DNA of 64,000 nt from Eledone cirrhosa (lineage: Eukaryota): the NCBI GenBank assembly GCA_964016885.1, contig OZ024765.1, positions 1,178,001-1,242,000 of the forward strand, read 5' to 3'. Shown in pieces: positions 19,166-58,412 of this stretch (positions within the stretch are counted from its first letter, which is position 1; every line of letters begins with the position of its first letter). The notes beneath the pieces are model-generated. The model was given only the letters and a program-made list of their open reading frames with translations, was not told where the DNA came from and did not search any database. Both the position numbers and the translations under genes were made by a program.

Positions 19166-19232
19166 TCATGTGAGAATTCTGGCCGGATACAGCCAGTTTA
19201 AATGCTAAAGGGTTAAATAAATAACACTTTAA

Positions 19233-20051
19233 CCCTTTAGCATTTAAACTGGCCAGAATTCTCTCACCTCTTTCTGTTCAAACCAACTGTAACTAGCCAC
19301 GCCTACTAATGTTTAGGTATTGTTCTCAAAATAAATAACATCAAATTTTCATAGATCCAGTATTATGTGAGATAAATTGTTTACCATGAAAATACAATAG
19401 TATATATAGAGTAATGTAAATGTTATGTGAGATATTATGTGATGTAAAGCCTTTACTGTGAAAATACAATAGTATATATAGAGTAATGTAAATGTTATGT
19501 GAGATATTGTGAGGTAAAAGCCTTTACTGTGAAAATACAATAGTATATATAGAGTAATGTAAATGTTATGTGAGATATTGTGAGGTAAAAGCCTTTACTG
19601 TGAAAATACAATAGTATATATAGAGTAATGTAAATGTTATGTGAGGTAAAGCCTTTACTGTGAAAATACAATAGTATATATAGAGTAATGTAAATGTTAT
19701 GTGAGATATTATGTGAGGTAAAGCCTTTACTGTGAAAATACAATAGTATATATAGAGTAATGTAAATGTTATGTGAGATATTGTGAGGTAAAAGCCTTTA
19801 CTGTGAAAATACAATAGTATATATAGAGTAATGTAAATGTTATGTGAGGTAAAGCCTTTACTGTGAAAATACAATAGTATATATAGAGTAATGTAAATGT
19901 TATGTGAGATATTATGTGAGGTAAAGCCTTTACTGTGAAAATACAATAGTATATGTAGAGTAATGTAAATGTTATGTGAGATATTATGTGAGGTAAAGCC
20001 TTTACTGTGAAAATACAATAGTATATATAGAGTAATGTAAATGTTAAAGGG
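19233..20051. mobile_element. piggyBac-type MITE expanded by about 10 internal 60/72-bp repeats
   Basis: TTAA|CCCTTTAGCATTTA ... TAAATGTTAAAGGG|TTAA with an internal tandem array. Confidence 0.88.
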
Positions 20052-20505
20052 TTAAACCAGCTTTAAATATACTTATTATCTTATACTGTTTCTCTATTAT
20101 TTCAGAATACCAGATGAGACCAACATTAAAGTGTTTTCAACACCAGAAACATCAATATTTATTTTTCATCTTTTAAAGACAGAACACATATAACCCTGTC
20201 TATTAAATCTATAATTTACTGTGAAATATTTCATTTGAACTGAGATTATTTCCAACATTTCTCTACTGTCTGGAATGTGTTGAAGTTGATTTTATATTCT
20301 GACTAAACTTGGATAAATTTACAAAGGAGTTTGCAACATCTTCTGACATCAAGATCAAAGTTGATTGAAATAGAGAAGACAGAAGAATTCTTAAGAATAA
20401 ACTATCGAAACCAAAATAAGAAAATTTACATATTTTTGAGAAAGGAGAAATTTTTGGTACAGAAGAACTTGTTAAGACTGAACAGATTATATTTTTCCTG
20501 AAGAG

Positions 20506-22149
20506 ATGGCAAATGAGCAAGAGAAATCACCAGACCACTGCAATGACTCTAAAACATCACTCTTTCATAAACTTAACTTAACTGAGCACAAGATTATTCA
20601 TACTGGAGAGAAACCGTATCACTGTAATATCTGTGATAAATCATTCTCTAGTAGTGAATTGGCTAGCCACACATGTGCGCATACAGAAGAGAAACCATGT
20701 CTCAGTGATATCTCTGGTAAACCATTCTCTCAAAGTAGTGAATTGACTGTGGACACCCTTGCGCATGCAGATGAGAAACCAAATCTCAGTGATATCTCTG
20801 GTAAACCATTCTCTCAAAGTAGTGAATTGACTGTTGACACACTAACACATACAGGAGAGAAACTACAGCACAGTGATATCAGTGGTAAATCATTCTCTCA
20901 AAGTAGTAAATTGACTAACACACTTACACGTACAGGAGAGAAAGCGCATCACTGCGATATCTGTGGTAAATCATTTTCTACAAGAAGTATATTGACTCGT
21001 CACAAACATACGCACACAGGAGAGAAACCATATCATTGTAATATCTGTGGTAAATCATACACTAGAAGTAGTGACTTAACTATTCACATGCGTACACATA
21101 CAGGAGAGAAACCATATCACTGTAATATCTGTGGTAGATCATTTTCTAAAAGTAGTCTCTTAGCTGATCACAAGCGTGTTCATACAGGAGAGAAACCATA
21201 TCTCTGTGATATCTGCGATAAATCATTCGCTCAAAGTAGTGAATTGATTATTCACACACGTATACATACAGGAGAGAAACCATATCAGTGTGATATCTGT
21301 GATAAATCATTCTCTAAAAGTTATTTCTTGACTGTTCACACTCGTACACATACAGGAGAAAAACCATATCACTGCGATATCTGTGATAAATCATTTTCTA
21401 CAACAAGTATATTGACTCGTCACAAACATACGCATACAGGAGAGAAACCATATCACTGTAATATCTGCGATAAATCATTTTCTACAAGTGGTAACTTGAC
21501 TGTTCACATGCGTACACATACAGGAGAGAAACCATATCACTGCGATATCTGTGATAAATCATTCTCTGCAAAAAGTAACTTGTCTGATCACACACGTATT
21601 CATACAGGTGAGAGACCATATCACTGTGATATCTGTGGTAAATCATTCTCTACTAAATGTAACTTGGCTGATCACACACGTATTCATACAGGAGAGAAAC
21701 CATATCACTGTAATATCTGTGAAAAATCATTCTTTCAAAGTAGTTCCTTAACTTCTCACATACGTACACATACAGGAGAGAAACCATATCACTGCGATAT
21801 CTGTGATAAATCATTCTCTGGAAGTAATCAGCTAACTTCTCACACACGTATACATACAGGAGAGAGGCCATATCACTGTGATATCTGTGGTAAATCATTC
21901 TTTCAAAGTAGTTCCTTAACTACTCACACACGAATTCATACAGGAGTGAAACCATATCGCTGTGATCTCTGTGGTAAATCATTTGCTCAAAGTATAAGTT
22001 TAACTACTCACACACGCAGTCATACAGGGGAGAAGCCATATCACTGTGATATCTGTGGTAAATCATTTACTCAAAGTAATAAATTGACTGTTCACAAACG
22101 TTCTCATACAGGCGAGAAACCATATCATTCTGTCATGTTCAAGCCTTAA
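20506..22149 (+). CDS. Tandem C2H2 zinc-finger protein, 547 aa
   Basis: 14 canonical CxxC-x12-HxxxH fingers with TGEKPY linkers, preceded by about 5 degenerate fingers. Likely acceptor TTTCAG at 20105. Confidence 0.95.
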
Positions 22150-22385: not shown

Positions 22386-22922
22386 GCGGTGAATTGGCAG
22401 TATCGGGAGAGGGTTGGACGCCATGCTTTCTAGCATAGTTACGTCCCTTTACAGTCTGAGTTCAAATCCCGCCGAGGTTAACTTTGCCTTTCATCCTTAC
22501 GGGGTCGATAAAATAAAGTACCAGTAATCATCATCATCATCATCATTTTACGTCCACTTTTCCCTGCTTGCAAGGGTGGGACGGGAACTGATTCTGGCTT
22601 GATTTCTACAGCTGGATGCCCTTCCTAACACCAACCTCATTTACAGTGAGTGCTGGGTGCTTTTTTTTTTGCCGTGGCACCTGCACGACCATTTTGCAGT
22701 GGAATGATAGGGACCCCAATCCCTATCATCTCATTTCTACAGCTGAGTAAACTGGAGCAATGTGAAATAAAGTGTCTTGCTCAAGGAAACAACACATCAC
22801 CTGGTCTGAGAATTGAACTCACAACCTTCGATTGCAAGGCCAATGCTCTAACCACTAAGCCATGCGCCTCCTAATGTACTGGGTAATTGCTGGCCTTGTG
22901 CCTAAAGTAGAAACAATTATTG
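22386..22922 (+). mobile_element. Meta-domain-like tRNA SINE interrupted by a CORE-type SINE
   Basis: B-box GAGTTCAAATCC, then GCCTTTCATCCTTACGGGGTCGATAAAATAAAGTACC. The element resumes at 22872. Uninterrupted copies at 24340-24475 and 28100-28262. Confidence 0.8.
22529..22871 (-). mobile_element. Full-length CORE-type SINE (nested)
   Basis: Near-identical to 107-447, with an (ATG)n tail, flanked by TAAT on both sides. Confidence 0.88.
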
Positions 22923-23141: not shown

Positions 23142-23920
23142 ACGAGGCTTGGCTGTAAAGTTCATTGGCTGACTATGATGGGGTGATACCAAAGCTGTGA
23201 AATCTTGCATGCATTAATTTCAACTCTTCTTAACCCTTTAGCATTTACATTACTCTATATATATTATTGTATTTTTACAGTAAAGGCTTTACCTCACATA
23301 ATATTTACATTACTCTATATATACTATTGTATTTTCACAGTAAAAGCTTTATCTCACATAACATTTACATTACTCTATATATACTATTGTATTTTCATGG
23401 TAAAGGCTTTATCTTACTCAATTATTTCACATAATATTGAATCTACGAGATTTTGAGATTATTTATTTTGAGAACAATACCTTAACATAAGTATGAGCAG
23501 CCAGTTTTGAAAACAAAGAGGTGAGAGAATTTTGGCCGGATATGGCCAGTTTAAATGCTAAAGGGTTTATAACTTCAAATGTGTGTATATATATATATGA
23601 ATGTGTGCGTATATATATATATGAATGTGTGCGTATATATATATATATATATGAATGTGTGCGTATATATATATATGAATCTCTTGAAAATGGACAAAAT
23701 TTGACATCGGGGTATTATCAAATACCTGTAGAAAAAAGGTTTAACCCCAAAGGACATTCATGCTGACATGGTTGCTACATTACGGGGTCATGCTCCAGCT
23801 TTATCAACAGTGCAAAAGTGGACAGCTGAATTAAGGAGAGAGTCTTGAAGATAGCCCAAGGTCTGGATGTCCTGCAACTTCCACCATCGAGGACAGCAAT
23901 GATTATGTTTACCAAGATGG
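23142..23920 (+). pseudogene. Mariner transposon relic (N-terminal transposase)
   Basis: From 23690: MDKI*HRGIIKYL*KKGLTPKDIHADMVATLRGHAPALSTVQKW, then after a frameshift ESLEDSPRSGCP (mariner HTH and the EDxPRSGRP motif). TA|CGAGG TIR-like start at 23142. Confidence 0.75.
23234..23565. mobile_element. piggyBac-type MITE (reverse orientation, 3 internal repeats)
   Basis: TTAA|CCCTTTAGCATTTA ... TAAATGCTAAAGGG|TTTA. Confidence 0.82.
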
Positions 23921-28784: not shown

Positions 28785-29030
28785 ATGGCACGTCTTGGAA
28801 ATCAAACAGTGCCCAATGGTCACTTCCATAAGGACTGGCAGCGCTATGTCCGAACCTGGTTTGACCAGCCGATGCGCAAGAAGCGCCGGGCGAGAAGGAG
28901 GATGCAGAAAGCTAGGAGGGTTGCCCCCAGACCAGCAGCTGGTCCTCTCCGACCCATCGTCACATGCCCTTCCATCAAATACAACATGCGTGTTCGTGCT
29001 GGACGTGGTTTCACCATTGAAGAGTTGAGG
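28785..29030 (+). CDS. RPL13: 60S ribosomal protein L13 (eL13), coding exon 1 of 3
   Basis: [32 protein letters not shown]...[12 protein letters not shown]. Acceptor TTTCAG ends at 28776; donor GTAAGG at 29031; phase 0. Confidence 0.97.
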
Positions 29031-30745: not shown

Positions 30746-30919
30746 AAAGCTGGCATCAGCAAGAGGGAAGCCCCCACAATTGGCATTGCCGTAGATTACA
30801 GAAGACGGAGTATGTCTGCAGAGGCTCTCCAGTGTAATGCTCAGAGACTGAAGGAATACAAATCCAGGTTGATTCTCTTCCCCAGAAAGATGAGCAAACC
30901 TGGCAAGAAGGACTCTTCG
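30746..30919 (+). CDS. RPL13: RPL13 coding exon 2 of 3
   Basis: [58 protein letters not shown] between AG (30745) and GT (30920); phase 0/0. Confidence 0.96.
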
Positions 30920-30985
30920 GTAACTATGCCTTGTTTTTATTTATTTTGGCCCTTCACAAATACAACTGGGGTTTCCTATCATTAA

Positions 30986-31194
30986 CTCTTTAGCATTTAC
31001 TTTACTCTATATTTACTGTTGTATTATTTTCATGGTAAACCCTGCATTTTACATAATGTAGAATCAACAGGCTTTTGATATTTATTATGGGAACTATACC
31101 TTAACATAAGTATGAGCAGCTGATTGTAGTCGGTTTGAACAGAAAAGAGGTGAAAGAATTCTGGCCGGATATGGCTGGTTTAAATGCTAAAGGG
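30986..31194. mobile_element. piggyBac-type MITE (diverged)
   Basis: TTAA|CTCTTTAGCATTTA ... TAAATGCTAAAGGG. A further truncated copy lies at 35154-35340. Confidence 0.75.
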
Positions 31195-31503
31195 TAAAAA
31201 CACTCTAGAAACCTCCAATGAGATATAATCTTTTGTGGGGCCAGCTAATCTTATATATGTGAGCTGTAACATGACAGGACTGGGGTCCCTATCATTAAAA
31301 CACCCTAAAAACCTATTAGATACTACCTTACCTTGTATGGGGCTAGCTAAACCTACATAGGTGTGAGTTGTAATATGACTGGACTGACATCTCCAGTTGT
31401 GAAAATAGCCCCCCATAAAATTGTGTTGGAAGAGGGGTAGGTTGTTATAGAAAACCACAGCTAACTTTAGTTAGGGTTGGTGTGAGAAGATTTGGTATGT
31501 TAT

Positions 31504-31591
31504 TTGACCAGTCCAGTGATGATAAATCATGTACCACTCTGACCGTAGTGATGGACACACAAACACCCATATATCTGAGGATATTGGTCAA
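31504..31591 (+). ncRNA. Box C/D snoRNA, copy 1 (U32/snR40-like guide)
   Basis: Stem TTGACCA/TGGTCAA; C box GTGATGA at 31516; D' CTGA at 31539; C' GTGATGG at 31548; D CTGA at 31575. Sense strand in a ribosomal-protein intron. Confidence 0.88.
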
Positions 31592-31639
31592 CAGCTTTAT
31601 ATATTTGGTGGTGGTGGGGTGGGGTAATTTGAGCCGGGC

Positions 31640-32530
31640 TTGACCAGGCACTATATATATATTGGTGAGTACAGTTATTTTACTGTGGTGTAAGGTAATG
31701 TCTTGTTTAGCCCTGGGTATATCTTGACCAGGCACTATATATATATTGGTGAGTACAGTTATTTTACTGTGGTGTAAGGTAATGTCTTGTTTAGCCCTGG
31801 GTATATCTTGACCAGGCACTATATATATATTGGTTAGTACAGTTATTTTACTGTGGTGTAAGGTAATGTCTTGTTTAGCCCTGGGTATATCTTGACCAGG
31901 CACTATATATATATTGGTTAGTACAGTTATTTTACTGTGGTGTAAGGTAATGTCTTGTTTAGCCCTGGGTATATCTTGACCAGGCACTATATATATATTG
32001 GTTAGTACAGTTATTTTACTGTGGTGTGGGGTAATGTCTTGTTTAGCCCTAGGTATATCTTGACCAGGCACTATATATATATTGGTTAGTACAGTTATTT
32101 TACTGTGGTGTGGGGTAATGTCTTGTTTAGCCCTGGGTATATCTTGACCAGGCACTATATATATATTGGTTAGTACAGTTATTTTACTGTGGTGTAAGGT
32201 AATGTCTTGTTTAGCCCTGGGTATATCTTGACCAGGCACTATATATATATTGGTTAGTACAGTTATTTTACTGTGGTGTAAGGTAGTGTCTTGTTTAGCC
32301 CTGGGTATATCTTGACCAGGCACTATATATATATTGGTTAGTACAGTTATTTTACTGGGGTGTAAGGTAATGTCTTGTTTAGCCCTGGGTATATCTTGAC
32401 CAGGCACTATATATATATTGGTTAGTACAGTTATTTTACTGTGGTGTAAGGTAATGTCTTGTTTAGCCCTGGGTATATCTTGACCAGGCACTATATATAT
32501 ATATTGGTTAGTACAGTTATTTTACTGGGG
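31640..32530 (+). repeat. 84-bp minisatellite, 10 full copies plus 1 partial
   Basis: TTGACCAGGCACTATATATATATTGGTTAGTACAGTTATTTTACTGTGGTGTAAGGTAATGTCTTGTTTAGCCCTGGGTATATC at an exact 84-bp period. Confidence 0.95.
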
Positions 32531-33158
32531 TGTGGGGTTATGTCTTTAGCTCCTGGTGTGACTTGACCAAACTCTGCAGGATATTTTACTGTGGGGTGGG
32601 GTAGTGTCTTGTTTAGCTCTGGGGATATCTTGACCAAAGACCTACACATATATGTTGGTCAGTACAATTATTTTACTGTGGTGAGGTGTGTAGGGTAATG
32701 TCCTGTTTAGCCCTAGGTATGGGGTAAGGAAGCCACTGGTTGACTTTAGAATAAAACCCACTGACTACATCACATGAAAAACTACTCTAATACTACATAT
32801 TTTCACAATTTGTCCACCAGTAGAGGTACTATAAGCATTGGAAATAACAGACTCTTAGGTTATTGTTTGTTTTCTTTTTTTGCTAAATTAATATAGGGTG
32901 TTAAGTATTCAAAAAGGTTTTTATTTTTCACCTATATGTATATATATATTCGTGGGAAGCAGGTCCTGTCAAAAGCAACCATCTTCCATTGATCTGGCTG
33001 GGTCCCCAAGTGTGACCAGCTGATCTCATAGATGTTATTCAACCATTTTGAGGGGGTTTACCAGCCCTGGGTCCCCTGCTGGTTGGTTTTGTCCAGAAAG
33101 GTTTACCAATGAATATGTAGATTTTTATGAAGTAAAATCAGGTGTGGTGTGTTGTTAT

Positions 33159-33246
33159 TTGACCAGTCCAATGATGATAAATCATGTACCACTCTGACCG
33201 TGGTGATGGACACACAAACACCCATATATCTGAGGATATTGGTCAA
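33159..33246 (+). ncRNA. Box C/D snoRNA, copy 2
   Basis: As copy 1, with C box ATGATGA and one A>G change between D' and C'. Confidence 0.88.
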
Positions 33247-33906
33247 CAGCTTTATATATTTGGGGGGGGGGGGTAATTTGAGCCGGGCTTGGCCAGACTA
33301 TATATATATTGGTCGGTACAGTTATTTTACTGCGGTGTGAGGTAATGTCATTACCTCCTGGTGTGACTTGACCAAACCGTGCAGGATATTTTAAAAGTAG
33401 GGTAGTGTCTTGTTTAGCTCTGGGGACATCTTGACCAAACACTACACATATATGTTGGTCAGTACGATTATTTTGTGGTGGGGTGTGTAAGGTAATGTCA
33501 TGTTATGTCCTGGGTGTGGGGTAAAGAAGCGACCATGACTACATCACACGAAAGACCCTACTCTAATACTACATATTTTCACAACTATCTGTCCACTAGA
33601 AGAAATACTATAAACATTGGAATTAATAAGATATTTTTGCTAAATTATTACAGGGTGTTAAGTCTTCAAAAAAATTTTTTGTTCACCTATATGTATATTC
33701 GTGGGAGCAGAGACCTCAAACCACTCCTCCTAGCAGGTCCTGTCAAAAGCAACCATCTCTGATTGATCTGACTGATCTCATAGATGTTATCCAACCATTT
33801 TGAGGGGGTTTACCAGCCCTGGGTCCCCTGCTGGTTGGTTTTGTCCAGGTTTACCGATGAATATGTAGATTTTTATGAAGTAAAATCAGGTGTGGTGTGT
33901 TGTTAT

Positions 33907-33994
33907 TTGACCAGTCCAATGATGATAAATCATGTACCACTCTGACCGTAGTGATGGACACACAAACACCCATATATCTGAGGATATTGGTCAA
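33907..33994 (+). ncRNA. Box C/D snoRNA, copy 3
   Basis: As copy 1, with C box ATGATGA. Confidence 0.88.
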
Positions 33995-34146
33995 CAGCTT
34001 TATATATTTGGTGGGGGGGGGGGGTAACCTGAGCCAGGCTTGACCAGACACTATATATTGGTCAGTACAGTTATTTTACTGAGGTGTGAGGTAATGTCTT
34101 GTTTAGCTCTGGAGGTGTCTTGACCAGGCACTATATATATATATAT

Positions 34147-34450
34147 TGGCCTTGCAATCAAAAGGTTGTGAGTTCAATTCTCAGACCGGGTGATGTGTTG
34201 TTTCCTTGAGCAAGACACTTTATTTCACATTGCTCCAGTTTACTCAGCTGTAGAAATGAGATGATAGGGACTGGGGTCCCTATCATTCCACTGTAAAGTG
34301 GTCGTGGAGGTGCCACGGCAAAAAAGCACCCAGCACTCACTGTAAATGAGGTTGGTGTTAGGAAGGGCATCCAGCTGTAGAAATCAAGCCAGAATCAATT
34401 CCCGTCCCACCCTTGCAAGCAGGGAAAAGTGGACGTAAAATGAAATGATG
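34147..34450 (+). mobile_element. 5'-truncated CORE-type SINE
   Basis: Reverse complement of 107-447 lacking the A-box end. Inserted within an 84-bp-type unit. Confidence 0.85.
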
Positions 34451-34692
34451 GTCAGTACAGTTATTTTACTGCGGTGTGTCTTATTTAGTTCTGGGAGTGG
34501 GGTACTGTTTTAGTTAGCCCTGGTATTTAGTTAATGTCTTGTTTGGCCATGGGTATATATTGGTTAGTACGGTTATTTTTGTGTGGTGAGATGTGTGGGG
34601 TAAGGAATCAAACCCATGACATTAGTCCAACAACATTACCACTATACTACTCACCTCTTTAGGACAGGAGGTTATTTATAATATTTTACTGT

Positions 34693-34780
34693 TTGACCAG
34701 TCCAGTGATGATAAATCATGTACCACTCTGACCGTAGTGATGGACACACAAACACCCATATATCTGAGGATATTGGTCAA
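34693..34780 (+). ncRNA. Box C/D snoRNA, copy 4
   Basis: Core identical to copy 1. Confidence 0.88.
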
Positions 34781-35424
34781 CAGCTAAATATATTTGATAG
34801 GAGGGGTGGTGGCTTGTTGAGCTTGGCTTGACCAGACACTACATATACAACTTTATATGAGGCCCGCTAAACCTACATAAGTGAGCTGGAACAACATATG
34901 ACTGGGGTCTTATTAAATACCTGTGAAGCCTCCTATGAGATACAACCTTGTAGGACTGAGGTCCCCTATCATTAAAACACCCAACAACCCTATGTGGTAA
35001 AAACCGTGCTAAGCCTACGCCTGTGAACTAACAAAATGACAGGTTCTCTATCATTAAAACACTCTAAAAACCTATGAGATACAACCTCGTAGGAGGCCAG
35101 CTAAACCTACATAGGTTTGAGCTGTAACAACATAAGACTGAGGGTCTTATTAACCCTTTAGCTTTTACATTACCCTATATATACTGTTGTATTTTTGTGG
35201 TAGAAGCTTTACCTCAAATGATATTGAAGCTATGGGATTTTGATGTTATTTATTTCGAGAACAATGCCTTAACATAAGTATGAGTGGCCAGTTACAGCTG
35301 GTTTGAAGAGAAAGAGGTGAGATAATTATGGCCAGTTAAAATACCTGATAAACCTGCTATGAGATGCAACCTTTTGTGAGGCTAGCTAGACCTACTACAT
35401 AGGTGTGAGGTGGTGTGTTGTTAT

Positions 35425-35512
35425 TTGACCAGTCCAATGATGATAAATCATGTACCACTCTGACCGTAGTGATGGACACACAAACACCCATATATCTGAG
35501 GATATTGGTCAA
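35425..35512 (+). ncRNA. Box C/D snoRNA, copy 5
   Basis: Core identical to copy 3. Confidence 0.88.
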
Positions 35513-35789
35513 CAGCTTTATATATTTGGTGGGGGTGTCTTGACCAGGTCAGTACAGTTATTTTACTGCGGTGTGTCTTATTTAGTTCTGGGAGTGGGGT
35601 ACTGTTTTAGTTAGCCCTGGTATTTAGTTAATGTCTTGTTTGGCCATGGGTATATATTGGTTAGTACGGTTATTTTTGTGTGGTGAGATGTGTGGAGTAA
35701 GGAATCAAACCCACGACATTTGTCCAACAACATTACCACAATACCACTCACCTCCTTAGGACAGGAGGTTATTTATAATATTTTACTGT

Positions 35790-35877
35790 TTGACCAGTCC
35801 AGTGATGATAAATCATGTACCACTCTGACCGTAGTGATGGACACACAAACACCCATATATCTGAGGATATTGGTCAA
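35790..35877 (+). ncRNA. Box C/D snoRNA, copy 6
   Basis: Core identical to copy 1. Confidence 0.88.
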
Positions 35878-36134
35878 CAGCTAAATATATTTGATGGTGT
35901 GAGGTAACTTCAGCCAGGCTTGACCAGACACTATATATTGGTTAGTACAGTTATTTTACTGCGGTGTGGGGGTATTGTCTTGTTTAGCTCTGGGTGTGGG
36001 AAAATTGTGATAGGATGTAAGGACTACGCTGGGGTTGATATAGAATTTCCCCTCCCTGCAGGTTGTTGACCTTGGGGCTGAATTAGAAATTAAGGACCAC
36101 TTCTCATTTGTCTCTCTTGTTATTCTCATTGCAG

Positions 36135-36350
36135 GCTGAAGAGATCAAGTTGGCTACCCAGTTGAAGGGTACGTTGATGCCTATTGTAAACAGGGTGAAG
36201 AAAGACAGACCTCAAGTGCTGACCAAGGACATGAAGAGATTCCGTGCTGTTCACACAATCAAGACTGCACGCAATGACAAACGTATGTTTGGTCGAAGAC
36301 AGAAGATAGCCGAGAGGTTGGCTGCAGAAGAGGAGTCTAAGAAAAAATAG
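36135..36350 (+). CDS. RPL13: RPL13 coding exon 3 of 3
   Basis: AEEIKLATQLKGTLMPIVN...ARNDKRMFGRRQKIAERLAAEEESKKK*. Acceptor TTGCAG ends at 36134. The spliced total is 82+58+71 = 211 aa. Confidence 0.96.
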   Translation, partial: AEEIKLATQLKGTLMPIVNRVKKDRPQVLTKDMKRFRAVHTIKTARNDKRMFGRRQKIAERLAAEEESKKK

Positions 36351-36363
36351 GAAGCTTAGGATT

Positions 36364-36369
36364 AATAAA
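36364..36369 (+). terminator. RPL13 polyadenylation signal
   Basis: AATAAA 13 nt after the stop, followed by a GT/T-rich downstream element (GGTTTGTTGTTTT). Confidence 0.8.
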
Positions 36370-36400
36370 TGTTAACTACTTTAAATGCACTGGTTTGTTG

Positions 36401-39541: not shown

Positions 39542-42500
39542 TCATAGTCATTTATGATGCCGTTTTAGCCATTTTGGAGTCATTCTAGTCATTTATGATG
39601 CCGTTTTAGTCATTTATAATGACGTTTTAGCTATTTTAGTCAACTATGATGTCGTTTGAGCCATTTTGGAGTAATTTTAGTCATTTATGATGTCGTGTTA
39701 GCCATTTTAGAGTCGTTTTAGACATTGATGATGCCGTTTTAGTCATTCTAGTCATTTATGATGCCGTTTAGCCAATTTAGTCATTCCTAATGACGTTTTA
39801 GCTATTTTAGAGTCATTTAAGATGCCGTTTAATCCATTTTGGAGTCATTTTAGTCATTTATGATGCCGTTTTAGTAATTTATAAAGACGTTTTAGCTATT
39901 TGAGAGTTATTTTAGTCATTTATGATGCCGTTTTAACCATTTTAGTCATTTATAATGACGTTTTAGTCATATATGATGCTATTTTAGCCATTTTAGACTC
40001 ATTTAATCATTCATAATGCCGTTTTTCCCCATTTTAGTCATTTATGATGCCGGTTTAGCCATTTTGGAGTCATTCTAGTCATTGATGATGCCGTTTTAGC
40101 CATTTTAGTCATTCCTAGTGACGTTTTAGCTATTTTAGAGTCATTTTAGTCATTTATGATGCCGTTTTAGCCATTTTGGAGTCATTCTAGTCATTTATGA
40201 TGCCATTTTAGTCATTTATAATGACGTTTTAGCTATTTAAGAGTCATTTTAGTCATTTATGATGCCGTTTTACCCATTTTAGTCATTTATAATGACGTTT
40301 TAGATATTTAAGAGTCATTTTACTCATTTATGATGCTATTTTAGCCATTCTAGACACATTTGAGTCATTCATAATGCCGTTTTTCCCCCATTTTAGTAAT
40401 TTATAATGACGTTTTTGCCATTTTAGTCATTCCTAGTGACGTTTTAGCTATTTTAGAGACATTTGAGTCATTTAAGATGCCGTTTTAACCATTTTGGAGT
40501 CATCTTAGTCATTTATGATGCCATTTTAGTCATTTATAGTGATGTTTTAGCCATTTTAGTCATTTATGATGTTATTTTAGCCATTTCAGACTCACTTAAT
40601 CCTTCAGATTGCCATTTTTACCCATTTTAGTCATTTATAATGACGTTTTAGCCACTTTAGAGTCATTTTAGCCATTTTGGAGTCATTCTAGTCATTGATG
40701 ATGCCGTTTTAGCCATTTTAGTCATTTATAATGACGTTTTAGCTATTTAAGAGTCATTTTAGTCATTTATGATGACGTGTTAGCCATTTTGGAGTCATTC
40801 TAGTCATTTATGATGTCGTTTTAGCCATTTTAGTCATTCCTAATGATGTTTTAGCTATTTTAGAATCATTTGAGTCATTTAAGATGCCGTTTTAACCATT
40901 TCGGAGTCATTTTAGTCATTGATGATGCGGTTTTAGCCATTTTGGAGTCATTCTAGTTATTTATGATGCCGTTTTAGCCATTTTAGTCATTTATAATGAC
41001 GTTTTAGCCATTTTAGAGTCATTTTAGTCATATATGATGCTATTTTAGCCATTTTAGACTCATTTAATCATTCATAATGCGGTTTTTCCTCATTTTAGTC
41101 TTTTATAATGATGTTTTAGCCACTTTAGAGTCATTTTAGTCATTTATGATGCCGTTTTAGCCATTTTGGAGTCATTTGAGTCATTTATGATGTCGTTTTA
41201 GCCATTTTAGTCATTCCTAATGACGTTTTAGCTATTTAAGATTCATTTTAGTCATTTATGATGCCGTTTTAGCCATTTTGGAGTCATTCTAGTCATTTAT
41301 CATGCCGTTTTAGCCATTTTAGTTATTCCCAATGACGTGTTAGCTATTTTAGAGTCATTTGAGTCATTTAAGATGCCGTTTTAACCATTTTGGAGTCATT
41401 TTAGTCATTTATGATGACGTTTTAGCCATTTTAGTCATTTATAATGACGTTTTAGCTATTTAAGAGTCATTTTAGTCATTTGTGATGCCGTTTTAGCCAT
41501 TTTAGTCATTTATAATGACGTTTTAGCCATTTTAGAGTCATTTTAGTCATATATGATGCTATTTTAGCCATTTTAGACTCATTTAATCATTCATAATGCT
41601 GTTTTTCCCCATTTTAGTCATTTATAATGACGTTTTAGCCACTTTAGAGTCATTTTAGTCATTTATGATGCCATTTTGCAGTCATTCTAGTCATTTATGA
41701 TGCCGTTTTAGTCATTTTTAATGACGTTTTAGCTATTTAAGAGTCATTTTAGTCAATTATGATGCCATTTTAGTCATTTATAATGAGGTTTTAGCCACTT
41801 TAGAGTCATTTTACTCATTTATGATGCTATTTTAACCATTCTAGTCACATTTTAGTCATTTATAATGCCGTTTTAGCCATTTTGGAGTCATTCTAGTCAT
41901 TTATGACGTCGTTTTAGCCATTTTAGTCATTCCTAATGACATTTAACTATTTTAGACTCATTTGAGTCATTTAAGATGCCGTTTTAACCATTTTGGAGTC
42001 ATGTTAGTCATTTATAATGACGTTTTAGCTATTTCAGAGTCACTTTAGTCATTTATGATGCCGTTTTAGTCATTTATAATGACGTTTTAGTTATTTTGGA
42101 GTCTTTTGAGTCATTTATGATGCCGTTTTAGCCATTTTGGTGTCATTCTAGTCATTTATTATGCCGTTTTAGTCATTCCCAATGACGTTTTAGCTATTTT
42201 AGAGTCATTTGAGTAATTTAAGATGCCGTTTTAACCATTTTGTAGTCATTTATGATGCCATTTTAGTTATTAATAATGACGTTTTAGCTATTTTAGAGTC
42301 ATTTGAGTCATTTATGATGCCGTTTTAACCATTTTGGAGTCATGTTAGTCATTTATGATGCCGTTTTAGGCATTTTAGTCATTTATAATGACGTTTTAGC
42401 TATTTCAGAGTCACTTTAGTCATTTATGATGCCGTTTTAGTCATTCCCAATGACGTTTTAGCTATTTTAGAGTCATTTGAGTAATTTAAGATGCCGTTTT

Positions 42501-45500
42501 AACCATTTTGGAGTCATTTTAGTCATTTATGATGCCATTTTAGTTATTAATAATGACGTTTTAGCTATTTTAGAGTCATTTGAGTCATTTAGATGCCGTT
42601 TTAACCATTTTGGAGTCAGTTTAGTCATCTATGATGCCGTTTTAGCCATTTTAATCATTTATAATGACGTTTTAGCCATTTTAGAGTCATTTTAGTCATA
42701 TATGATGCTATTTTAGCCATTTTAGACTCATTTAATCATTCATAATGCCGTTTTCCTTCTATTTTAGTCATTTATAATGACGTTTTAGCCACTTTAGAAT
42801 CATTTTAGTCATTTATGATGCCGTTTTAGCCATTTTGGGGTCATTCTAGTCATTTATGATGCCGTTTTAGCCATTTTAGTCATTAATAATGACGTTTTAG
42901 CTATTTAAGAGTCATTTTATTCAATTATAATGACGTTTTAACCACTTTAGAGTCATTTTACTCATTTATGATGCTATTTTAGCCATTTTGGAGTCATTCT
43001 AGTCATTTATGATGCCGTTTTAGCCATTTCAGTTATTTCTAATGACGTTTTAGCTATTTGAGAGTCATTTTAGTCATTTATGATGCCGTTTTAGCCATTT
43101 TAGTCATTTATAATGACGTTTTAGCTGTTTTAGAGTCATTTGAGTCATTAATGATGCCGTTTGAGCCATTTTGGAGTCATTCTAGTCATTTATGTTGCCG
43201 TTTTAGCCTTTTTAGTCATTTATAATGACGTTTTAGCTGTTTAAGAGTCATTTTAGTTATTTATGATGCAGTTTTAGCCATTTTGGAGTCATTCTAGTCA
43301 TTTATGATGCCGTTTTAGTCATTTATAATGACGTTTTAGCTATTTAAGAGTCATTTTATTCAATTATAATGACGTTTTAACCACTTTAGAGTCATTTTAC
43401 TCATTTATGATGCTATTTTAGCCATTTTGGAGTCATTCTAGTCATTTATGATGCCGTTTTAGCCATTTTAGTTGTTCCTAATGACGTTTTAGCTATTTGA
43501 GAGTCATTTTAGTCATTTATGATGCCGTTTTAGCCATTTTAGTCATTTATAATGACGTTTTAGCTATTTTAGAGTCATTTGAGTCATTTATGATGCCGTT
43601 TGAGCCATTTTGGAGTCATTCTAGTCATTTATGATGCCGTTTTAGCCTTTTTAGTCATTTATAATGACGTTTTAGCTATTTAAGAGTCATTTTATTCAAT
43701 TATAATGTCGTTTTAGCCACTTTAGAGTCATTTTACTCATTTATGATGCTATTTTAGCCATTTTGGAGTCATTCTAGTCATTTATGATGCCTTTTTAGCC
43801 ATTTTAGTTATCCCTAATGACGTTTTAGCTACTTGAGAGTTATTTTAGTCATTTATGATGCGGTTTTAGCCATTTTAGTAATTTATAATGACGTTTTAGC
43901 TATTTTAGAGTCATTTGAGTAATTTAAGATGCCGTTTTAACCATTTTAGTTGTTCCTAATGACGTTTTAGCTATTTGAGAGTCATTTTAGTCATTTATGA
44001 TGCCGTTTTAGCCATTTTAGTCAGTTATAATGACGTTTTATCTATTTTAGAGTCATTTGAGTCATTTATGATGACGTTTGAGCCATTTTGGAGTCATTCT
44101 AGTCATTTATGATGCCGTTTTAGCCTTTTTAGTCATTTATAATGACGTTTTAGCTATTTAAGAGTCATTTTAGTTATTTATGATGCCGTTTTAGCCAGTT
44201 TGGAGTCATTCTAGTCATTTATGATGCCGTTTTAGCCATTTTGGAGTCATTCTAGTCATTTATGATGCCGTTTTAGCCATTTTAGTTGTTCCTAATGACG
44301 TTTTAGCTATTTGAGAGTCATTTTATTCAATTATAATGACGTTTTAGCCACTTTAGAGTCATTTTACTCATTTATGATGCTATTTTAGCCATTTTGGAGT
44401 CATTCTAGTCATTTATGATGCCGTTTTAGCCATTTTAGTTATTTATAATGACGTTTTAGCTATTTAAGAGTCATTTTAGTCATTTATTATGCCGTTTTAG
44501 CCATTTTGGTCATTTATAATGACGTTTTAGCCATTTTAGAATCATTTTAGTCATATATGATGCTATTTTAGCCATTTTAGACTCATTTAATCATTCATAA
44601 TGCTGTTTTTCCCCATTTTAGTCATTTATAATGACGTTTTAGCCACTTTAGAGTCATTTTAGTCATTTATGATGCCATTTTGCAGTCATTCTAGTCATTT
44701 ATGATGCCGTTTTAGCCATTTTAGTCATTTTTAATGACGTTTTAGCTATTTAAGAGTCATTTTAGTCAATTATGATGCCATTTTAGTCATTTATAATGAG
44801 GTTTTAGCCACTTTAGAGTCATTTTACTCATTTATGATGCTATTTTAGCCATTCTAGTCACATTTTAGTCATTTATAATGCCGTTTTAGCCATTTTGGAG
44901 TCATTCTAGTCATTTATGATGTCGTTTTAGTCATTCCTAATGACGTTTTACCTATTTTAGACTCATTTGAGTCATTTAAGATGCCGTTGTAACCATTTTG
45001 GAGTCATGTTAGTCATTTATAATGCCGTTTGAGCCATTTTAGTTATTTATAATGACGTTTTAGCCATTTTGGAGTCATTCTAGTCATTGATGATGCCGTT
45101 TTAGACATTTTAGTCATTCCTAATAACGTTTTAGCTATTTTAGAGTCATTTGAGTCATTTATGATGCCGTTTTAACCATTTTGGAGTCATGTTAGTCATT
45201 TATGATGCCGTTTTAGCCTTTTTAGTCATTTATAATGATGTTTTAGCTATTTTAGAGTCATTTGAGTCATTTATGATGCCGTTTTAGCCATTTTGTAGTC
45301 ATTTTAGTCATTTATGATGCCATTTTAGTTATTAATAATGACGTTTTACCTATCTTAGAGTCATTTGAGTCATTTAGATGCCGTTTTAACCATTTTGGAG
45401 TCAGTTTAGTCATTTATGATGCCGTTTTAGCCATTTTAATCATTTATAATGACGTTTTAGCCATTTTAGAGTCATTTTAGTCATATATGATGCTATTTTA

Positions 45501-48500
45501 GCCATTTTAGACTCATTTAATCATTCATAATGCCGTTTTCCCTCTATTTTAGTCATTTATAATGACGTTTTAGCCACTTTAGAATCATTTTAGTCATTTA
45601 TGATGCCGTTTTAGCCATTTTGGAGTCATTCTAGTCATTTATGATGCCGTTTTAGCCATTTTAGTCATTAATAATGACGTTTTAGCTATTTAAGAGTCAT
45701 TTTATTCAATTATAATGGCGTTTTAACCACTTTAGGGTCATTTTACTCATTTATGATGCTATTTTAGCCATTTTGGAGTCATTCTAGTCATTTATGATGC
45801 CGTTTTAGCCACTTTAGTTATTTCTAATGACGTTTTAGCTATTTGAGAGTCATTTTAGTCATTTATGATGCCGTTTTAACCATTTTAGTCATTTATAATG
45901 ATGTTTTAGCTATTTTAGAGTCATTTGAGTCATTTAAGATGCCGTTTAGACCATTTTGGAGTCATTCTAGTCATTTATGATGCCGTTTTAGCCTTTTTAG
46001 TCATTTATAATGACGTTTTAGCTATTTAAGAGTCATTTTAGTTATTTATGATGCCGTTTGAGCCATTTTGGAGTCATTCTAGTCATTTATGATGCCGTTT
46101 TAGCCATTTTAGTCATTAATAATGACGTTTTAACTATTTAAGAGTCATTTTATTAAATTATAATGACGTTTTAGCCACTTTAGAGTCATTTTACTCATTT
46201 ATGATGCTATTTTAGCCATTTTGGGGTCATTCTAGTCATTTATGATGCCGTTTTAGCCATTTTAGTTATTTCTAATGACGTTTTAGCTATTTGAGAGTCA
46301 TTTTAGTCATTTATGATGCCGTTTTAGCCATTTTACTCATTTATAATGACGTTTTAGCTATTTAAGAGTCATTTGAGTCATTTATGATGCCGTTTGAGCC
46401 ATTTTGGAGTCATTCTAGTCATTTATGATGCCGTTTTAGCCATTTTAGTCATTTATAATGACGTTTTAGCTATTTAAGAGTCATTTTATTCAATTATAAT
46501 GACGTTTTAACCACTTTAGAGTCATTTTACTCATTTATGATGCTATTTTAGCCATTTTGGAGTCATTCTAGTCATTTATGATGCCGTTTTAGCCATTTTA
46601 GTTGTTCCTAATGACGTTTTAGCTATTTGAGAGTCATTTTAGTCATTTATGATGCCGTTTTAGTCATTTATAATGACGTTTAAGCTATTTTAGAGTCATT
46701 TGAGTCATTCATGATGCCGTTTGAGCCATTTTGGAGTCATTCTAGTCATTTATGATGCCGTTTTAGCCATTTTGGAGTCATTCTAGTCATTTATGATGCC
46801 GTTTTAGCCATTTTAGTCATTTATAATGACGTTTTAGCTATTTAAGAGTCATTTTATTCAATTATAATGACGTTTTAGCCACTTTAGAGTCATTTTACTC
46901 ACTTATGATGCTATTTTAGCCATTTTGGAGTCATTCTAGTCATTTATGATGCCGTTTTAGCCATTTTAGTTATTTCTAATGTCATCTTAGCTATTTGAGA
47001 GTCATTTTAGTCATTTATGATGCCGTTTTAGCCATTTTAGTCATTTATAATGACGTGTTAGCTATTTTAGAGTCATTTGAGTCATTTATGATGCCGTTTG
47101 AGCCATTTTGGAGTCATTCTAGTCATTTATGATGCCGTTTTAGCCTTTATAGTCATTTATAATGACGTTTTAGCTATTTAAGAGTCATTTTAGTTATTTA
47201 TGATGCCGTTTTAGCCATTTTGGAGTTATACTAGTCATTTATGATGCCGTTTTAGCCATTTTGGAGTCATTCTAGTCATTTATGATGCCGTTTTAGCCAT
47301 TTTAGTCATTTATAATGACGTTTTAGCTATTTAAGAGTCATTTTATTCAATTATAATGACGTTTTAGCCACTTTAGAGTCATTTTACTCATTTATGATGC
47401 TATTTTAGCCATTTTGGAGTCATTCTAATCATTTATGATGCCGTTTTAGCCATTTTAGTTATTTCTAATGACGTTTTAGCTATTTGAGAGTCAATTTAGT
47501 CATTCATGATGCCGTTTTAGCCATTTTAGTCATTTATAATGACGTTTTAACTATTTTAGAGTCATTTGAGTCATTTATGATGCCGTTTGAGCCATTTTGG
47601 AGTCATTCTAGTCATTTATGATGCCATTTTAGCCTTTTTAGTCATTTATAATGACGTTTTAGCTATTTAAGAGTCATTTTAGTTATTGATGATGGCGTTT
47701 TAGCCATTTTGGAGTCATTCTAGTCATTTATCTTGCCGTTTTAGCCATTTTAGTTATTCCCAATGACGTTTTAGCTATTTTAGAGTCATTTCAGTCATTT
47801 ATGATGCCGTTTGAGCCATTTTGGAGTCATTCTTGTCATTTATGATGCTGTTTTAGCCATTTTTATCATTTATAATGACGTTTTAGCTATTTTAGAGTCA
47901 TTTGAGTCATTTATGATGCCGTTTTAGTCATTTTAGTTATTTCTAATGACGTTTTAGCTATTTGAGAGTCATTTTAGTCATTTATGATGCCGTTTTAGCC
48001 ATTTTAGTCATTTATAATGACGTTTTAGCTATTTAAGAGTCATGTTATTCAATTATAATGTCGTTTTAGCCACTTTAGAGTCATTTTACTCATTTATGAT
48101 GCTATTTTAGCCATTTTGGAGTCATTTTAGTTGTTCCTAATGACGTTTTAGCTATTTGAGAGTCATTTTAGTCATTTATGATGCCATTTTAGCCATTTTA
48201 GTCATTTATAATAACGTTTAAGCTATTTTAGAGTCATTTGAGTCATTTATGATGCCGTTTGAGCCATTTTAGAGTCATTCTAGTCATTTATGATGCGGTT
48301 TTAGCCATTTTGCAGTCATTCTAGTCATTTACGATGCCGTTTTAGCCATTTTAGTCATTTATAATGACGTTTTAGCTATTTAAGAGACATTTTATTTAAT
48401 TATAATGACGTTTTAGCCACTTTAGAGTCATTTTACTCATTTATGATGCTATTTTAGCCATTTTGGAGTCATTCTTGTCATTTATGATGCCGTTTTTAGC

Positions 48501-51500
48501 CATTTTAGTTATTTCTAATGACGTTTTAGCTGTTTGAGAGTCATTTTAGTCATTTATGATGCCGTTTTAGCCATTTTAGTCATTATAATGATGTTTTAGC
48601 TATTTTAGAGTCATTTGAGTCATTTATGATGCCGTTTGAGCCATTGTGGAGTCATTCTAGTCATTTATGATGCGTTTTAGCCTTTTTAGTCATTTATAAT
48701 GACGTTTTAGGTATTTAAGAGTCATTTTAGTTATTTATGATGCCGTTGTAGCCATTTTGGAGTCATTCTAGTCATTTATGATGCCGTTTTTAGTCATTTA
48801 TAATGACGTTTTAGCTATTTAAGAGTCATTTTATTCAATTATAATGACGTTTTAGCCACTTTAGAGTCATTTTACTCATTTATGATGCTATTTTAGCCAT
48901 TTTGGAGTCATTCTAGTCATTTATGATGCGTTTTAGCCATTTTAGTTATTTCTAATGACGTTTTAGCTATTTGAGAGTCATTTTAGTCATTTATGATGCT
49001 GTTTTAGCCATTTTAGTCGTTTATAATAACGTTTTAGCTATTTTAGAGTCATTTGAGTCATTTATGATGCCGTTTGAGCCATTTTGAAGTCATACTAGTC
49101 ATTTATGATGCCGTTTTAGCGTTTTTAGTCATTTATAATGACGTTTTAGCTATTTAAGAGTCATTTTAGTTATTATGATGCCGTTTTAGCCATTTTGGAG
49201 TCATTCTAGTCATTTATGATGCCGTTTTAGCCTTTTTAGTCATTCATAATGACGTTTTAGCTATTTAAGAGTCATTTTAGTTATTTATGATGCCGTTTTA
49301 GCCATTTTGGAGTCATTCTAGTCATTTATGATGCCGTTTTAGCGATTTTAGTCATTCATAATAACGTTTTAGCTATTTAAGAGTCATTTTATTCAATTAT
49401 AATGACGTTTTAGCCACTTTAGAGTCATTTTACTCATTTATGATGCTATTTTAGCCTTTTTGGAGTCATTCTAGTCATTATGATGCCGTTTTAGCCATTT
49501 TAGTTTGTTCCTAATGACGTTTTAGCTATTTGAGAGTCATTTTAGTCATTTATGATGCTGTTTTAGCCATTTTAGTCGTTTATAATGACGTTTTAGCTAT
49601 TTTAGAGTCATTTGAGTCATTTATGATGCCGTTTGAGCCATTTTGAAGTCATACTAGTCATTTATGATGCCGTTTTAGCCTTTTTAGTCATTTATAATGA
49701 CGTTTTAGCTATTAAGAGTCATTTAGTTATTTATGATGCCGTTTTAGCATTTTGGAGTCATTCTAGTCATTTATGATGCCGTTTTAGCCATTTTAGTCAT
49801 TTATAATGACGTTTTAGCTATTTAAGAGTCATTTTATTCAATTATAATGACGTTTTAGCCACTTTAGAGTCATTTTACTCATTTATGATGCTATTTTAGC
49901 CATTTTGGAGTCATTCTAGTCATTTATGATGCCGTTTTAGCCATTTTAGTTATTTCTAATGACATTTTAGCTATTTGAGAGTCATTTTAGTCATTTATGA
50001 TGCCGTTTTAGCCATTTTAGTCATTTATAATGACGTTTTAGCTATTTTAGAGTCATTTGAGTCATTTATGATGCCGTTTGAGCCATTTTGGAGTCATTCT
50101 AGTCATTTATGATGCCGTTTTAGCCTTTTTAGTCATTTATAATGACGTTTTAGCTATTTAAGAGTCATTTTAGTTATTTATGATGCCGTTTGAGCCATTT
50201 TGGAGTCATTCTAGTCATTTATGATGCTATTTTAGCCATTTTGGTGTCATTCTAGTCATTTATGATGCCGTTTTAGCCATTTTAGTTATTTCTAATGACA
50301 TTTTAGCTATTTGAGAGTCATTTTAGTCATTTATGATGCCGTTTTAGCCATTTTAGTCATTTATAATTACGTTTTAGCTATTTAGAGTCATTTGAGTCAT
50401 TTATGATGCCGTTTGAGCCATTTGGAGTCATTCTAGTCATTTATGATGCCGTTTTAGCCTTTTTAGTAATTTATAATGACGTTTTAGCTATTTAAGAGTC
50501 ATTTTAGTTATTTATGATGCCGTTTGAGCCATTTTGGAGTCATTCTAGTCATTCATGATGCCGTTTTAGCCATTTTGGAGTCATTCTAGTCATTTATGAT
50601 GCCGTTTTAGCCATTGTAGTCATTTATAATGACGTTTTTGCTATTTAAGAGTCATTTTATTCAATTATAATGACGTTTTAGTCACTTTAGAGTCATTTTA
50701 CTCATTTATGATGCTATTTTAGCCATTTTGGAGTCATTCTAGTCATTTATGATGCCGTTTTAGCCATTTTAGTTATTTCTAATGACGTTTTAGGCTATTT
50801 GAGAGTCATTTTAGTCATTTATGATGCCGTTTTAGCCATTTTAGTCATTTATAATGACGTTTAAGCTATTTTAGAGTCATTTGAGTCATTTATGATGCCG
50901 TTTGAGCCATTTTGGAGTCATTCTAGTCATTTTTGATGCCGTTTTAGCCATTTTGGAGTCATTCTAGTCATTTATGATGCCGTTTTAGCCATTTTAGTCA
51001 TTTATAATGACGTTTTAGCTATTTAAGAGTCATTTTATTCAAATATAATGACGTTTTAGCCACTTAGAGTCATTTTACTCATTTATGATGCCTTTTTAGC
51101 CATTTTGGAGTCATTCTAGTCATTTATGATGCCGTTTTAGCCATTTTAGTTATTTCTAATGACATTTTAGCTATTTGAGAGTCATTTTAGTCATTTATGA
51201 TGACGTTTTAGCCATTTTAGTCATTTATAATGACGTTTTAGCTATTTTAGAGTCATTTGAGTCATTTATGATGCGTTTGAGCCATTTTAGAGTCATTCTA
51301 GTCATTTATGATGCCGTTTTAGCCCATTTTAGTTATTCCTAATGACATTTTAGCTATTTGAGAGTCATTTTAGTCATTTATGATGCCGTTTTAGCCATTT
51401 TAGTCATTTATAATTACGTTTTAGCTATTTTAGAGTCATTTGAGTCATTTATGATGCCGTTTGGAGCCATTTGGGAGTCATTCTAGTCATTTATGATGCC

Positions 51501-57500: not shown

Positions 57501-58212
57501 TAGTCATTTATGATGCCGTTTTAGGCATTTTAGTCATTTATAATGACGTTTTAGCTATTTAAGAGTCATTTTATTCAAATATAATGACGTTTTAGCCACT
57601 TTAGAGTCATTTTACTCATTTATGATGCCCTTTTTAGCCATTTTGGAGTCATTCTAGTCATTTATGATGCCGTTTTAGCCATTTTAGTTATTTCTAATGA
57701 CATTTTAGCTATTTGAGAGTCATTTTAGTCATTTATGATGTCGTTTAGCCATTTTAGTCATTTATAATGACGTTTTAGCTATTTTAGAGTCATTTGAGTC
57801 ATTTATGATGCCGTTTGAGCCATTTTAGAGTCATTCTAGTCATTTATGATGCCGTTTTAGCCATTTTAGTTATTCCTAATGACATTTTAGCTATTTGAGA
57901 GTCATTTTAGTCATTTATGATGCCGTTTTAGCCATTTTAGTCATTTATAATTACGTTTTAGCTATTTTAGAGTCATTTCAGTCATTTATGATGCCGTTTG
58001 AGCATTTGAGAGTCATTCTAGTCATTTATGATGCCGTTTTAGCCTTTTTAGTCATTTTATAATGACGTTTTAGCTATTTAATAGTCCATTTTATTCAATT
58101 ATAATGACGTTTTAACCACTTTAGAGTCATTTTAATCACTTGTGATGCTATTTTAGCCATTTTGGTGTCATTCTAGTCATTTATGATGCCGTTTTAGCCA
58201 TTTTAATTATTC
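39542..58212 (+). repeat. 18.7-kb satellite (satA) of 30- and 41-bp monomers
   Basis: GTCATTTATGATGCCGTTTTAGCCATTTT(GGAGTCATTCT)A and variants, continuous up to the gap. Confidence 0.97.
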
Positions 58213-58412
58213 NNNNNNNNNNNNNNNNNNNNNNNNNNNNNNNNNNNNNNNNNNNNNNNNNNNNNNNNNNNNNNNNNNNNNNNNNNNNNNNNNNNNNNNN
58301 NNNNNNNNNNNNNNNNNNNNNNNNNNNNNNNNNNNNNNNNNNNNNNNNNNNNNNNNNNNNNNNNNNNNNNNNNNNNNNNNNNNNNNNNNNNNNNNNNNNN
58401 NNNNNNNNNNNN
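58213..58412. other. Assembly gap (200 N)
   Basis: Run of N. Confidence 1.

Follow-up and report, generated by a model that had tools for sequence, protein, structure and literature searches.

Six copies of a predicted box C/D snoRNA and their coreless neighbours in the last RPL13 intron of the octopus Eledone cirrhosa

The stretch analysed here, referred to as the window, comprises 64,000 nucleotides of contig OZ024765.1 from Eledone cirrhosa (assembly GCA_964016885.1, positions 1,178,001 to 1,242,000, forward strand). Judged from its sequence, the gene at its centre is RPL13 (eL13) of this octopus, and the last RPL13 intron contains six nearly identical copies of a predicted small nucleolar RNA (snoRNA) of the box C/D class, each enclosed by a pair of short complementary arms. 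The same intron contains many shorter units that keep the arms and lack the snoRNA body. We call the former loaded cassettes (L1 to L6) and the latter empty units. The three RPL13 coding exons total 211 amino acids, which is the length of the Octopus proteins, and the exon at 28785..29030 is 96% identical to RPL13 of Octopus bimaculoides and 95% to that of O. sinensis. The last coding exon alone gave no Pfam match. A contig of sequencing run X4 connects the exon end at 30919 to the exon start at 36135, and the main transcript therefore removes the whole stretch between them as one intron. Because this contig is spliced, we took run X4, which is not labelled as such, to be RNA; X4 contigs also span portions of the intron. 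The host gene and the loaded cassettes are as follows.

28785..29030, forward strand: RPL13 (eL13) coding exon, residues 1-82 (Pfam PF01294, E=7.9e-35)
30746..30919, forward strand: RPL13 coding exon preceding the host intron (Pfam PF01294, E=1.1e-21; the loose end of the spliced X4 contig coincides with the end of this exon)
30920..36134, forward strand: host intron, the last of RPL13, GT..AG, 5215 nt (boundaries read; exon-to-exon contig in X4)
31504..31591, forward strand: loaded cassette L1, with outer arm, box C, guide and D', C', second element and D, outer arm (Rfam snoZ221_snoR21b, 30.8 bits, E=2.5e-5, gathering threshold 44)
33159..33246, forward strand: loaded cassette L2
33907..33994, forward strand: loaded cassette L3
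34693..34780, forward strand: loaded cassette L4
35425..35512, forward strand: loaded cassette L5
35790..35877, forward strand: loaded cassette L6, its box D end 270 nt upstream of the 3' splice site
36135..36350, forward strand: RPL13 last coding exon (from its translation)

The six 88-nt cassettes differ from one another at 0-2 of 88 nt, and all six have the layout TTGACCAG-core-ATATTGGTCAACAG, so that the arm-core-arm arrangement given in a preliminary description of this DNA was confirmed. Terminal boxes C (RUGAUGA) and D (CUGA), internal C' and D' boxes and a terminal stem, the features of a box C/D snoRNA, were found in every copy. The shared arms form an outer 7-bp stem, and an inner GUCC/GGAU stem adjoins boxes C and D. 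With the core held open, the terminal stem was computed to form at a probability of 0.89-0.98 at 37 °C; without constraint the range was 0.00-0.92. Outer stems are described, in the relevant part of one report, as often extending beyond the mature snoRNA ends (PMC4150776).

No match in the window reached an Rfam gathering threshold. Below the thresholds, the cassettes scored 30.8, 23.6 and 16.8 bits with the families snoZ221/snoR21b, snR40 and Me18S-Gm1358 (gathering 44, 50 and 50, respectively), and both guide-like elements aligned to the consensus of these families in the same order. The D' guide can form an 11-bp duplex with an 18S rRNA segment in locus L004, which is eukaryotic and non-octopus, and the second element can pair next to this first site in 18S. 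A search with the two-element target pattern matched 10 contigs, two of them eukaryotic 18S rRNA and eight unrelated. An antisense element as expected of a box C/D guide is thus present, with 18S as its predicted target, and we predict that the cassettes are rRNA-methylation guides most like snR40/snoR21/Me18S-Gm1358. As a side observation, two contigs of a viral collection, L004 and L008, contain eukaryotic 18S rRNA, which is probably host contamination.

With the two-element guide pattern, 53 metagenome loci were retrieved; box C and other terminal stems can be seen in their printed flanks. None of the 53 had a BLAST match to the octopus module, the empty unit or RPL13. They look like plant homologues, given their likeness to the Rfam plant model, and so would provide no close outgroup. 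Because the guide pattern is shared by these loci with other stems and without a match to the module, the core is taken to be old and the arms lineage-specific.

The empty units and the insertion that splits one of them are listed below.

31639..32546, forward strand: 84-bp minisatellite of 11 empty units after L1 (Tandem Repeats Finder, 10.8 copies, 97% matches)
32563..32720, forward strand: two older empty units closing the array (32563, without 3' arm; 32630)
33289..33520, forward strand: three empty units after L2 (33289; 33368, without 3' arm; 33431)
34040..34144, forward strand: empty units after L3 (34040; 5' half of 34120)
34145..34450, forward strand: 5'-truncated dispersed repeat resembling a short interspersed element (SINE) between the arms of 34120 (95% identity to copies at 22535-22844 and 123-420; junctions read)
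34449..34600, forward strand: 3' half of 34120 and degenerate empty unit 34543
34828..34846, forward strand: truncated empty unit after L4, without 3' arm (an X4 contig has the same junction)
35540..35700, forward strand: fused-arm unit 35540 (a 34120 derivative with a 19-nt deletion) and degenerate unit 35640
35920..36000, forward strand: empty unit after L6

We found 23 further 5'-arm sites (TTG[AG]CCA) between 31640 and 35920, 11 in the 84-bp array and 12 outside it. Both arms and a 9-17-nt insert are present at 18 of them; among the other five, 35540 is fused, 34120 is split by the repeat that we take to be a SINE, and 32563, 33368 and 34828 lack the 3' arm. This agrees with the more than 15 empty units and the insert-free fused arms at 35540 of the preliminary description, whose positions for the dispersed variants are real sites except that its 32620 is 32630. 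The statement that the 84-bp unit retains the snoRNA arms without the body was also borne out: the empty units keep the arms of the outer 7-bp stem alone, and the inner GUCC/GGAU stem is missing. By contrast, the insert GCAC(TA)n, which had been given as general, occurs in the array and in 34120 alone, and elsewhere the inserts start with ACAC, AC, AGAC or GGG. The intron had further been called an array of hairpin frames. The frames are real, but by a rough coordinate sum they occupy about half of the intron, the remainder including the SINE and other dispersed repeats. Within the array, each unit differs from the consensus at 0-3 positions (10 units compared), and in the first two copies the 3' arm reads TTGGTGAG, which breaks one pair.

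The unit is confined to the intron. A 21-nt empty-unit pattern had 16 matches in the window, all of them intronic, and none in 100 shuffles; the two-arm frame occurs 22 times inside the intron and never outside it within the 64 kb; and BLAST of the unit gave no match outside the intron in the window. The 5'-arm word TTGACCAG by itself is also found at 28861 in an RPL13 coding exon, where it encodes W-F-D-Q, likely by chance. An empty unit lies directly downstream of each of the six cassettes, 115-136 nt from the cassette start, and no empty unit lies upstream of L1. Since one follows every cassette, the duplicated module is "loaded plus empty".

Some smaller signals within the units were also considered. 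A candidate D-box remnant, AGGATATT, in 32563 and 33368 is equally explicable as a mutated ACAGTTATT. Splice-donor-like AGGTAA/GGGTAA stands about 20 nt after CAG in many units and loaded spacers (31640-35995), and X4 has no joint over 35380-36400. Weak matches of the array to Ref55 bacterial small RNAs (E 0.02-0.53) were rejected as chance.

BLAST and global alignment revealed two block duplications, 32494-33374 versus 33299-34126 (79% overall) and 34450-34846 versus 35547-35938 (95%). In the former, which spans 0.8 kb, the substitution identity of the empty units, at 88%, is below that of the adjacent tail (93%) and of the cassette (99%); the empty units are therefore not conserved above the neighbouring intron. 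Unit 35540 aligns as unit 34120 minus 19 nt, and its fused arms are therefore a late deletion. The copy at 34120 received the SINE between its arms, the sole other "cargo" seen in a frame and an ordinary insertion.

The stretch 35380-36400 was compared with four of 11 sequencing runs (X1, X4, X5 and X7); X6 and X8, of small share, and X9-X11, from restriction-site-associated DNA, were set aside. In X1, a DNA-type run of the same species, the depth was 46-86 over the empty unit versus 8.6 on the exon, in 31 contigs. Depth is not copy number, but the X1 values suit copies that are local rather than a large dispersed family. A joint between 35535 and 35903 in X1 was considered as a deletion, rejected, and read as a paralogous spacer. 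Run X7, from organism D, contains two or more cassettes whose 5' flanks differ, and the listed differences fall in the D'-C' linker. It has no contig on the exon, a gap that carries no weight. In the same run, a 108-nt contig with a depth of 406 (neighbours 17-69) covers the empty unit at 35935-35971, and its two loose ends repeat each other. This is likely the empty unit in tandem form, repeated at a period of about 78 bp, with the 5' arm kept and the spacer diverged; the splice-donor-like AGGTAA is absent from it. Run X5, from the more distant organism B, has the snoRNA body and 3' arm at 35446-35511, and the 30 letters shown upstream of this body lack box C, possibly as in a decayed copy. 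The loaded-plus-empty arrangement likely predates the split of A and D, and the unit was likely amplified or homogenised in both lineages.

Taken together, we favour, tentatively and with somewhat less than even confidence, the explanation that the empty units are functionless leftovers of local snoRNA duplication: a neighbouring copy would have lost its core, been duplicated together with an intact cassette, and in one place expanded into the 84-bp minisatellite. The starting point is a core of an old guide type, both elements of which align to plant, yeast and fly models, held in lineage-specific outer arms. Head-to-tail duplication of a cassette and its 3' flank, followed by loss of the approximately 60-nt core between the arms, would then have produced an initial empty unit some 45 nt downstream. 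The alignments show that the module of loaded and empty unit was copied in blocks, one of about 0.8 kb for L2/L3 and another exceeding 0.5 kb for L3-L4 versus L5-L6, and slippage or unequal crossing-over would have generated the 11 near-identical copies after L1. The empty units have decayed by SINE insertion, the 19-nt deletion and arm loss, while the cassettes stayed 98-100% identical. In the RNA, the empty units would simply fill the intron, either being broken down along with it or staying between snoRNAs that are bound by protein. Elsewhere in the window, 48-bp and 72-bp minisatellites consist of pieces of dispersed repeats; this genome therefore readily turns fragments into minisatellites. 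The 48-bp array (4321-5270, 19.8 copies) matches an internal piece of the SINE at 34145-34450.

Loaded and empty units were examined for similarity beyond the arms. When whole units were compared, arms included, the score of 13 of 16 pairs was reached by 0 of 500 shuffles, and that of the other three by 1, 3 and 21. The earlier suggestion that deleted cassettes were re-amplified fits this result. In global alignments of the arm-free spacers, 10 of 24 loaded-empty pairs were reached by at most 11 of 1000 shuffles and four by 40-49; these pairs are non-independent, and the sequence is G/T-rich. Several observations weigh against core loss. For the remaining 10 of the 24 spacer pairs, over 50 of 1000 shuffles attained the score. 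Profiles of the arm-free spacers gave no significant cross-match in the window (best E=4.2, the L6 spacer), and in the reverse search the best intron match had E=8.6-8.7. Comparison of the inserts with the core was not significant, the best being reached by 63 of 2000 shuffles and nine of 10 by at least 293, and such short, simple sequences do not permit assignment to the core. The high identity of the cassettes may partly reflect gene conversion; the 50 nt or so preceding L2 and L3 are identical. In organism D, a high-depth unit with an intact 5' arm and a diverged spacer is also what conserved arms would look like. Run X5 has no contig on the empty unit, which is uninformative at such divergence. 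We therefore regard the similarity beyond the arms, for which the preliminary description had proposed shuffled controls, as borderline: it is significant in anchored alignments and not so in the unanchored, arm-free profile search. As candidate snoRNA pseudogenes, the empty units show homology to the snoRNA locus and no recognisable decayed boxes or guide.

The same alignments also bear on a different origin, likewise neutral, in which the empty units were never filled. Here the 3' arm and its TA-rich flank would have been doubled, and a flip of the two central bases would have turned the near-palindromic arm TTGGTCAA into TTGACCAA, which mimics the 5' arm. Template-switch micro-inversion is a mechanism by which such a flip can arise. 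When the loaded 3' arm plus flank was aligned with the empty 5' arm, loop and 3' arm, 0-8 of 500 shuffles reached the score in 16 of 16 pairs, and this register scored higher than cassette-minus-core in 13 of the 16, although the lengths differ and the scores are not strictly comparable. Four empty units (32563, 32630, 33368 and 33431) start with TTGACCAA, of which the loaded 3' arm is exactly the reverse complement. In organism D, as read by eye, ACAC follows the loaded 3' arm as it follows the empty 5' arm in Eledone cirrhosa, and the lack of a detectable core remnant in the inserts is as arm doubling would have it. However, most empty units match the loaded 5' arm at 8 of 8 positions, including the final G, and the cassette-minus-core register is also significant (0-10 of 500 shuffles). 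Unit 34040 has ATATTGGTCA in common with the cassette end, and TGAC precedes the 5' arm in 32563, in 33368 and in loose ends of organisms B and D, a weak likeness seen by eye. We consider arm doubling quite possible, if on balance improbable. Both registers, cassette minus core and doubled 3' arm plus TA-rich flank, fit the empty units as derivatives of the cassette region.

A role of the empty units in the RNA seems unlikely to us. As hairpins, or through arms that cross-pair, they would mark where the RNA is cleaved between snoRNAs, allowing all six copies to be freed from the one intron, or would tune the assembly of small nucleolar ribonucleoproteins. The position of an empty unit directly after every cassette would suit such a role, and arm changes in the empty units mostly preserve G-U pairing. 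A six-copy intron also needs some release route, given that animals mostly have one snoRNA per intron according to the part of a review that deals with this (PMC11028025). Folded in isolation, the empty hairpins are weak (-2.2 to -7.9 kcal/mol). In local folding of the intron, none of the 18 two-arm units pairs its own arms at more than 0.40, and the stability of the 84-nt unit does not exceed that of its shuffles (z=-0.83). Together with their conservation no higher than that of the neighbouring intron, this speaks against the processing hairpins that had been proposed, and the stable, conserved stem-loop of an RNase III-type site was not found in the empty units. Cross-pairing between the 5' arm of an empty unit and the 3' arm of the snoRNA upstream of it, another earlier proposal, was predicted in naked RNA for two of six cassettes (0.86-0.89 for L5 and L6), but fell to at most 0.07 at 37 °C with the core held open, where the snoRNA's own stem forms. 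Moreover, the L4 empty unit lacks the 3' arm and that of L5 lacks a loop, yet both cassettes are intact, and 11 copies after L1 versus one after L6 would be an unexpected dosage for a cleavage signal. The chief reason for still entertaining a function is the likely age of the loaded-plus-empty arrangement, older than the split of A and D, together with the likely amplification or homogenisation of a similar unit in both lineages. In its boldest form, which we regard as a long shot, octopods would release a single rRNA-guide snoRNA in six copies from one RPL13 intron, aided by coreless stem units that stand after every copy, or keep the 4.4-kb stretch from L1 to L6 as a snoRNA-ended long noncoding RNA (sno-lncRNA) with the repeat array as a scaffold, and the unit would have been kept and independently amplified across species. 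Exonuclease trimming alone, acting on 31504-35877, would leave an RNA of about 4.4 kb with snoRNA ends.

The preliminary description had alternatively suggested that a repeat captured the snoRNA. A pre-existing hairpin repeat would then have taken up the core, supplied its stem and carried it. The lineage-specific arms must have come from somewhere, and other DNA is indeed found in one of the frames (the SINE at 34145-34450). However, the unit lies solely downstream of cassettes and is absent from the rest of the window, its depth in X1 is not high, and the loaded 5' flanks are unlike those of the unit. The fused site at 35540 is derived by a later deletion and is not an empty donor site, and the SINE is an ordinary insertion that occurs elsewhere without the arms. 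The lack of copies elsewhere in the 64-kb window and the modest X1 depth are not those of a dispersed repeat or a miniature inverted-repeat transposable element, though a few distant copies may exist. We therefore consider a carrier repeat very improbable, slightly more so than a role in the RNA.

Several other repeats lie in the window. Two copies of a dispersed repeat of about 200 bp are found in the host intron (30981-31199 and 35145-35342) and others at 751-1310, 19173-20055 and 23225-23566; its end forms 60-72-bp tandem arrays outside the intron. An additional short-repeat family in the intron, at 31197-31373, 34843-35146 and 35336-35412, is unrelated to the arm frame. An array with an 84-bp period at 20599-22127 (18.3 copies, 81%) is unrelated to the intron unit despite the equal period, and its consensus resembles what we take to be C2H2 zinc-finger coding repeats. 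An 18.7-kb satellite at 39545-58205, with nested periods of about 21, 41, 71 and 112 bp, ends at a gap of 200 N (58213-58412).

If the empty units are indeed neutral leftovers, the locus would be a readable record of snoRNA birth and decay, apparently in two species: an intact guide and its coreless neighbour were copied together, the one held at 99% and the other decaying and seeding a minisatellite. This would be a modest addition. We consider the six-snoRNA intron the more interesting feature, for it raises the question of the route by which six C/D snoRNAs are processed out of a single animal intron, to which the empty units would matter only if RNA ends map there. The literature searched gave no account of this locus or of a minisatellite built from a snoRNA flank, although annotation tables of genome papers could list such snoRNAs; the main text of the giant squid genome paper, as far as it was consulted, gives snoRNA counts only (PMC6962438).

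Among known guides, the cassettes resemble snR40 of yeast, snoR21/Z221 of plants, Me18S-Gm1358 of the fly and human U32A in the order of box C, the guide CAUG(C/U)ACCACU with D', C', and the ACCCA element with D. They differ in scoring below the gathering thresholds and in being six copies in one intron, and their methylation activity is a prediction. One report, seen in part, states that snR40 guides Gm1271 from its D' box and that its human homologue is U32A (PMC4344503). snR40 also targets Um898 of 25S, whereas the second octopus element can pair beside the first 18S site. Local duplication of C/D snoRNAs, with homogenisation and degenerate copies, is known, and the sections consulted of one review describe it for SNORD115/116, SNORD113/114 and rat Bsr (PMC11028025). 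In those cases, non-coding hosts carry orphan snoRNAs in introns that are repeated, whereas the octopus copies are of rRNA-guide type and lie together in one RPL13 intron; unlike the degenerate copies of those arrays, the ones of the octopus lack all boxes and form a minisatellite. According to the same sections, two snoRNAs in one intron can yield sno-lncRNAs (PMC11028025); such introns resemble this one in having more than one C/D snoRNA and differ from its six copies of a single snoRNA. The spacers of yeast polycistronic snoRNAs processed by Rnt1 likewise have hairpin-like sequence between snoRNAs. However, Rnt1 sites are described, in the part of the source at hand, as stems with AGNN tetraloops (PMC10557570), whereas the empty units have 7-8-bp stems with 9-17-nt loops that mostly do not form in context. 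Finally, element-derived minisatellites, of which the window has two others, share with the octopus array a short unit in head-to-tail copies, here 97% identical; they differ in their source, which in the octopus would be the flank of a snoRNA cassette and not a transposon.

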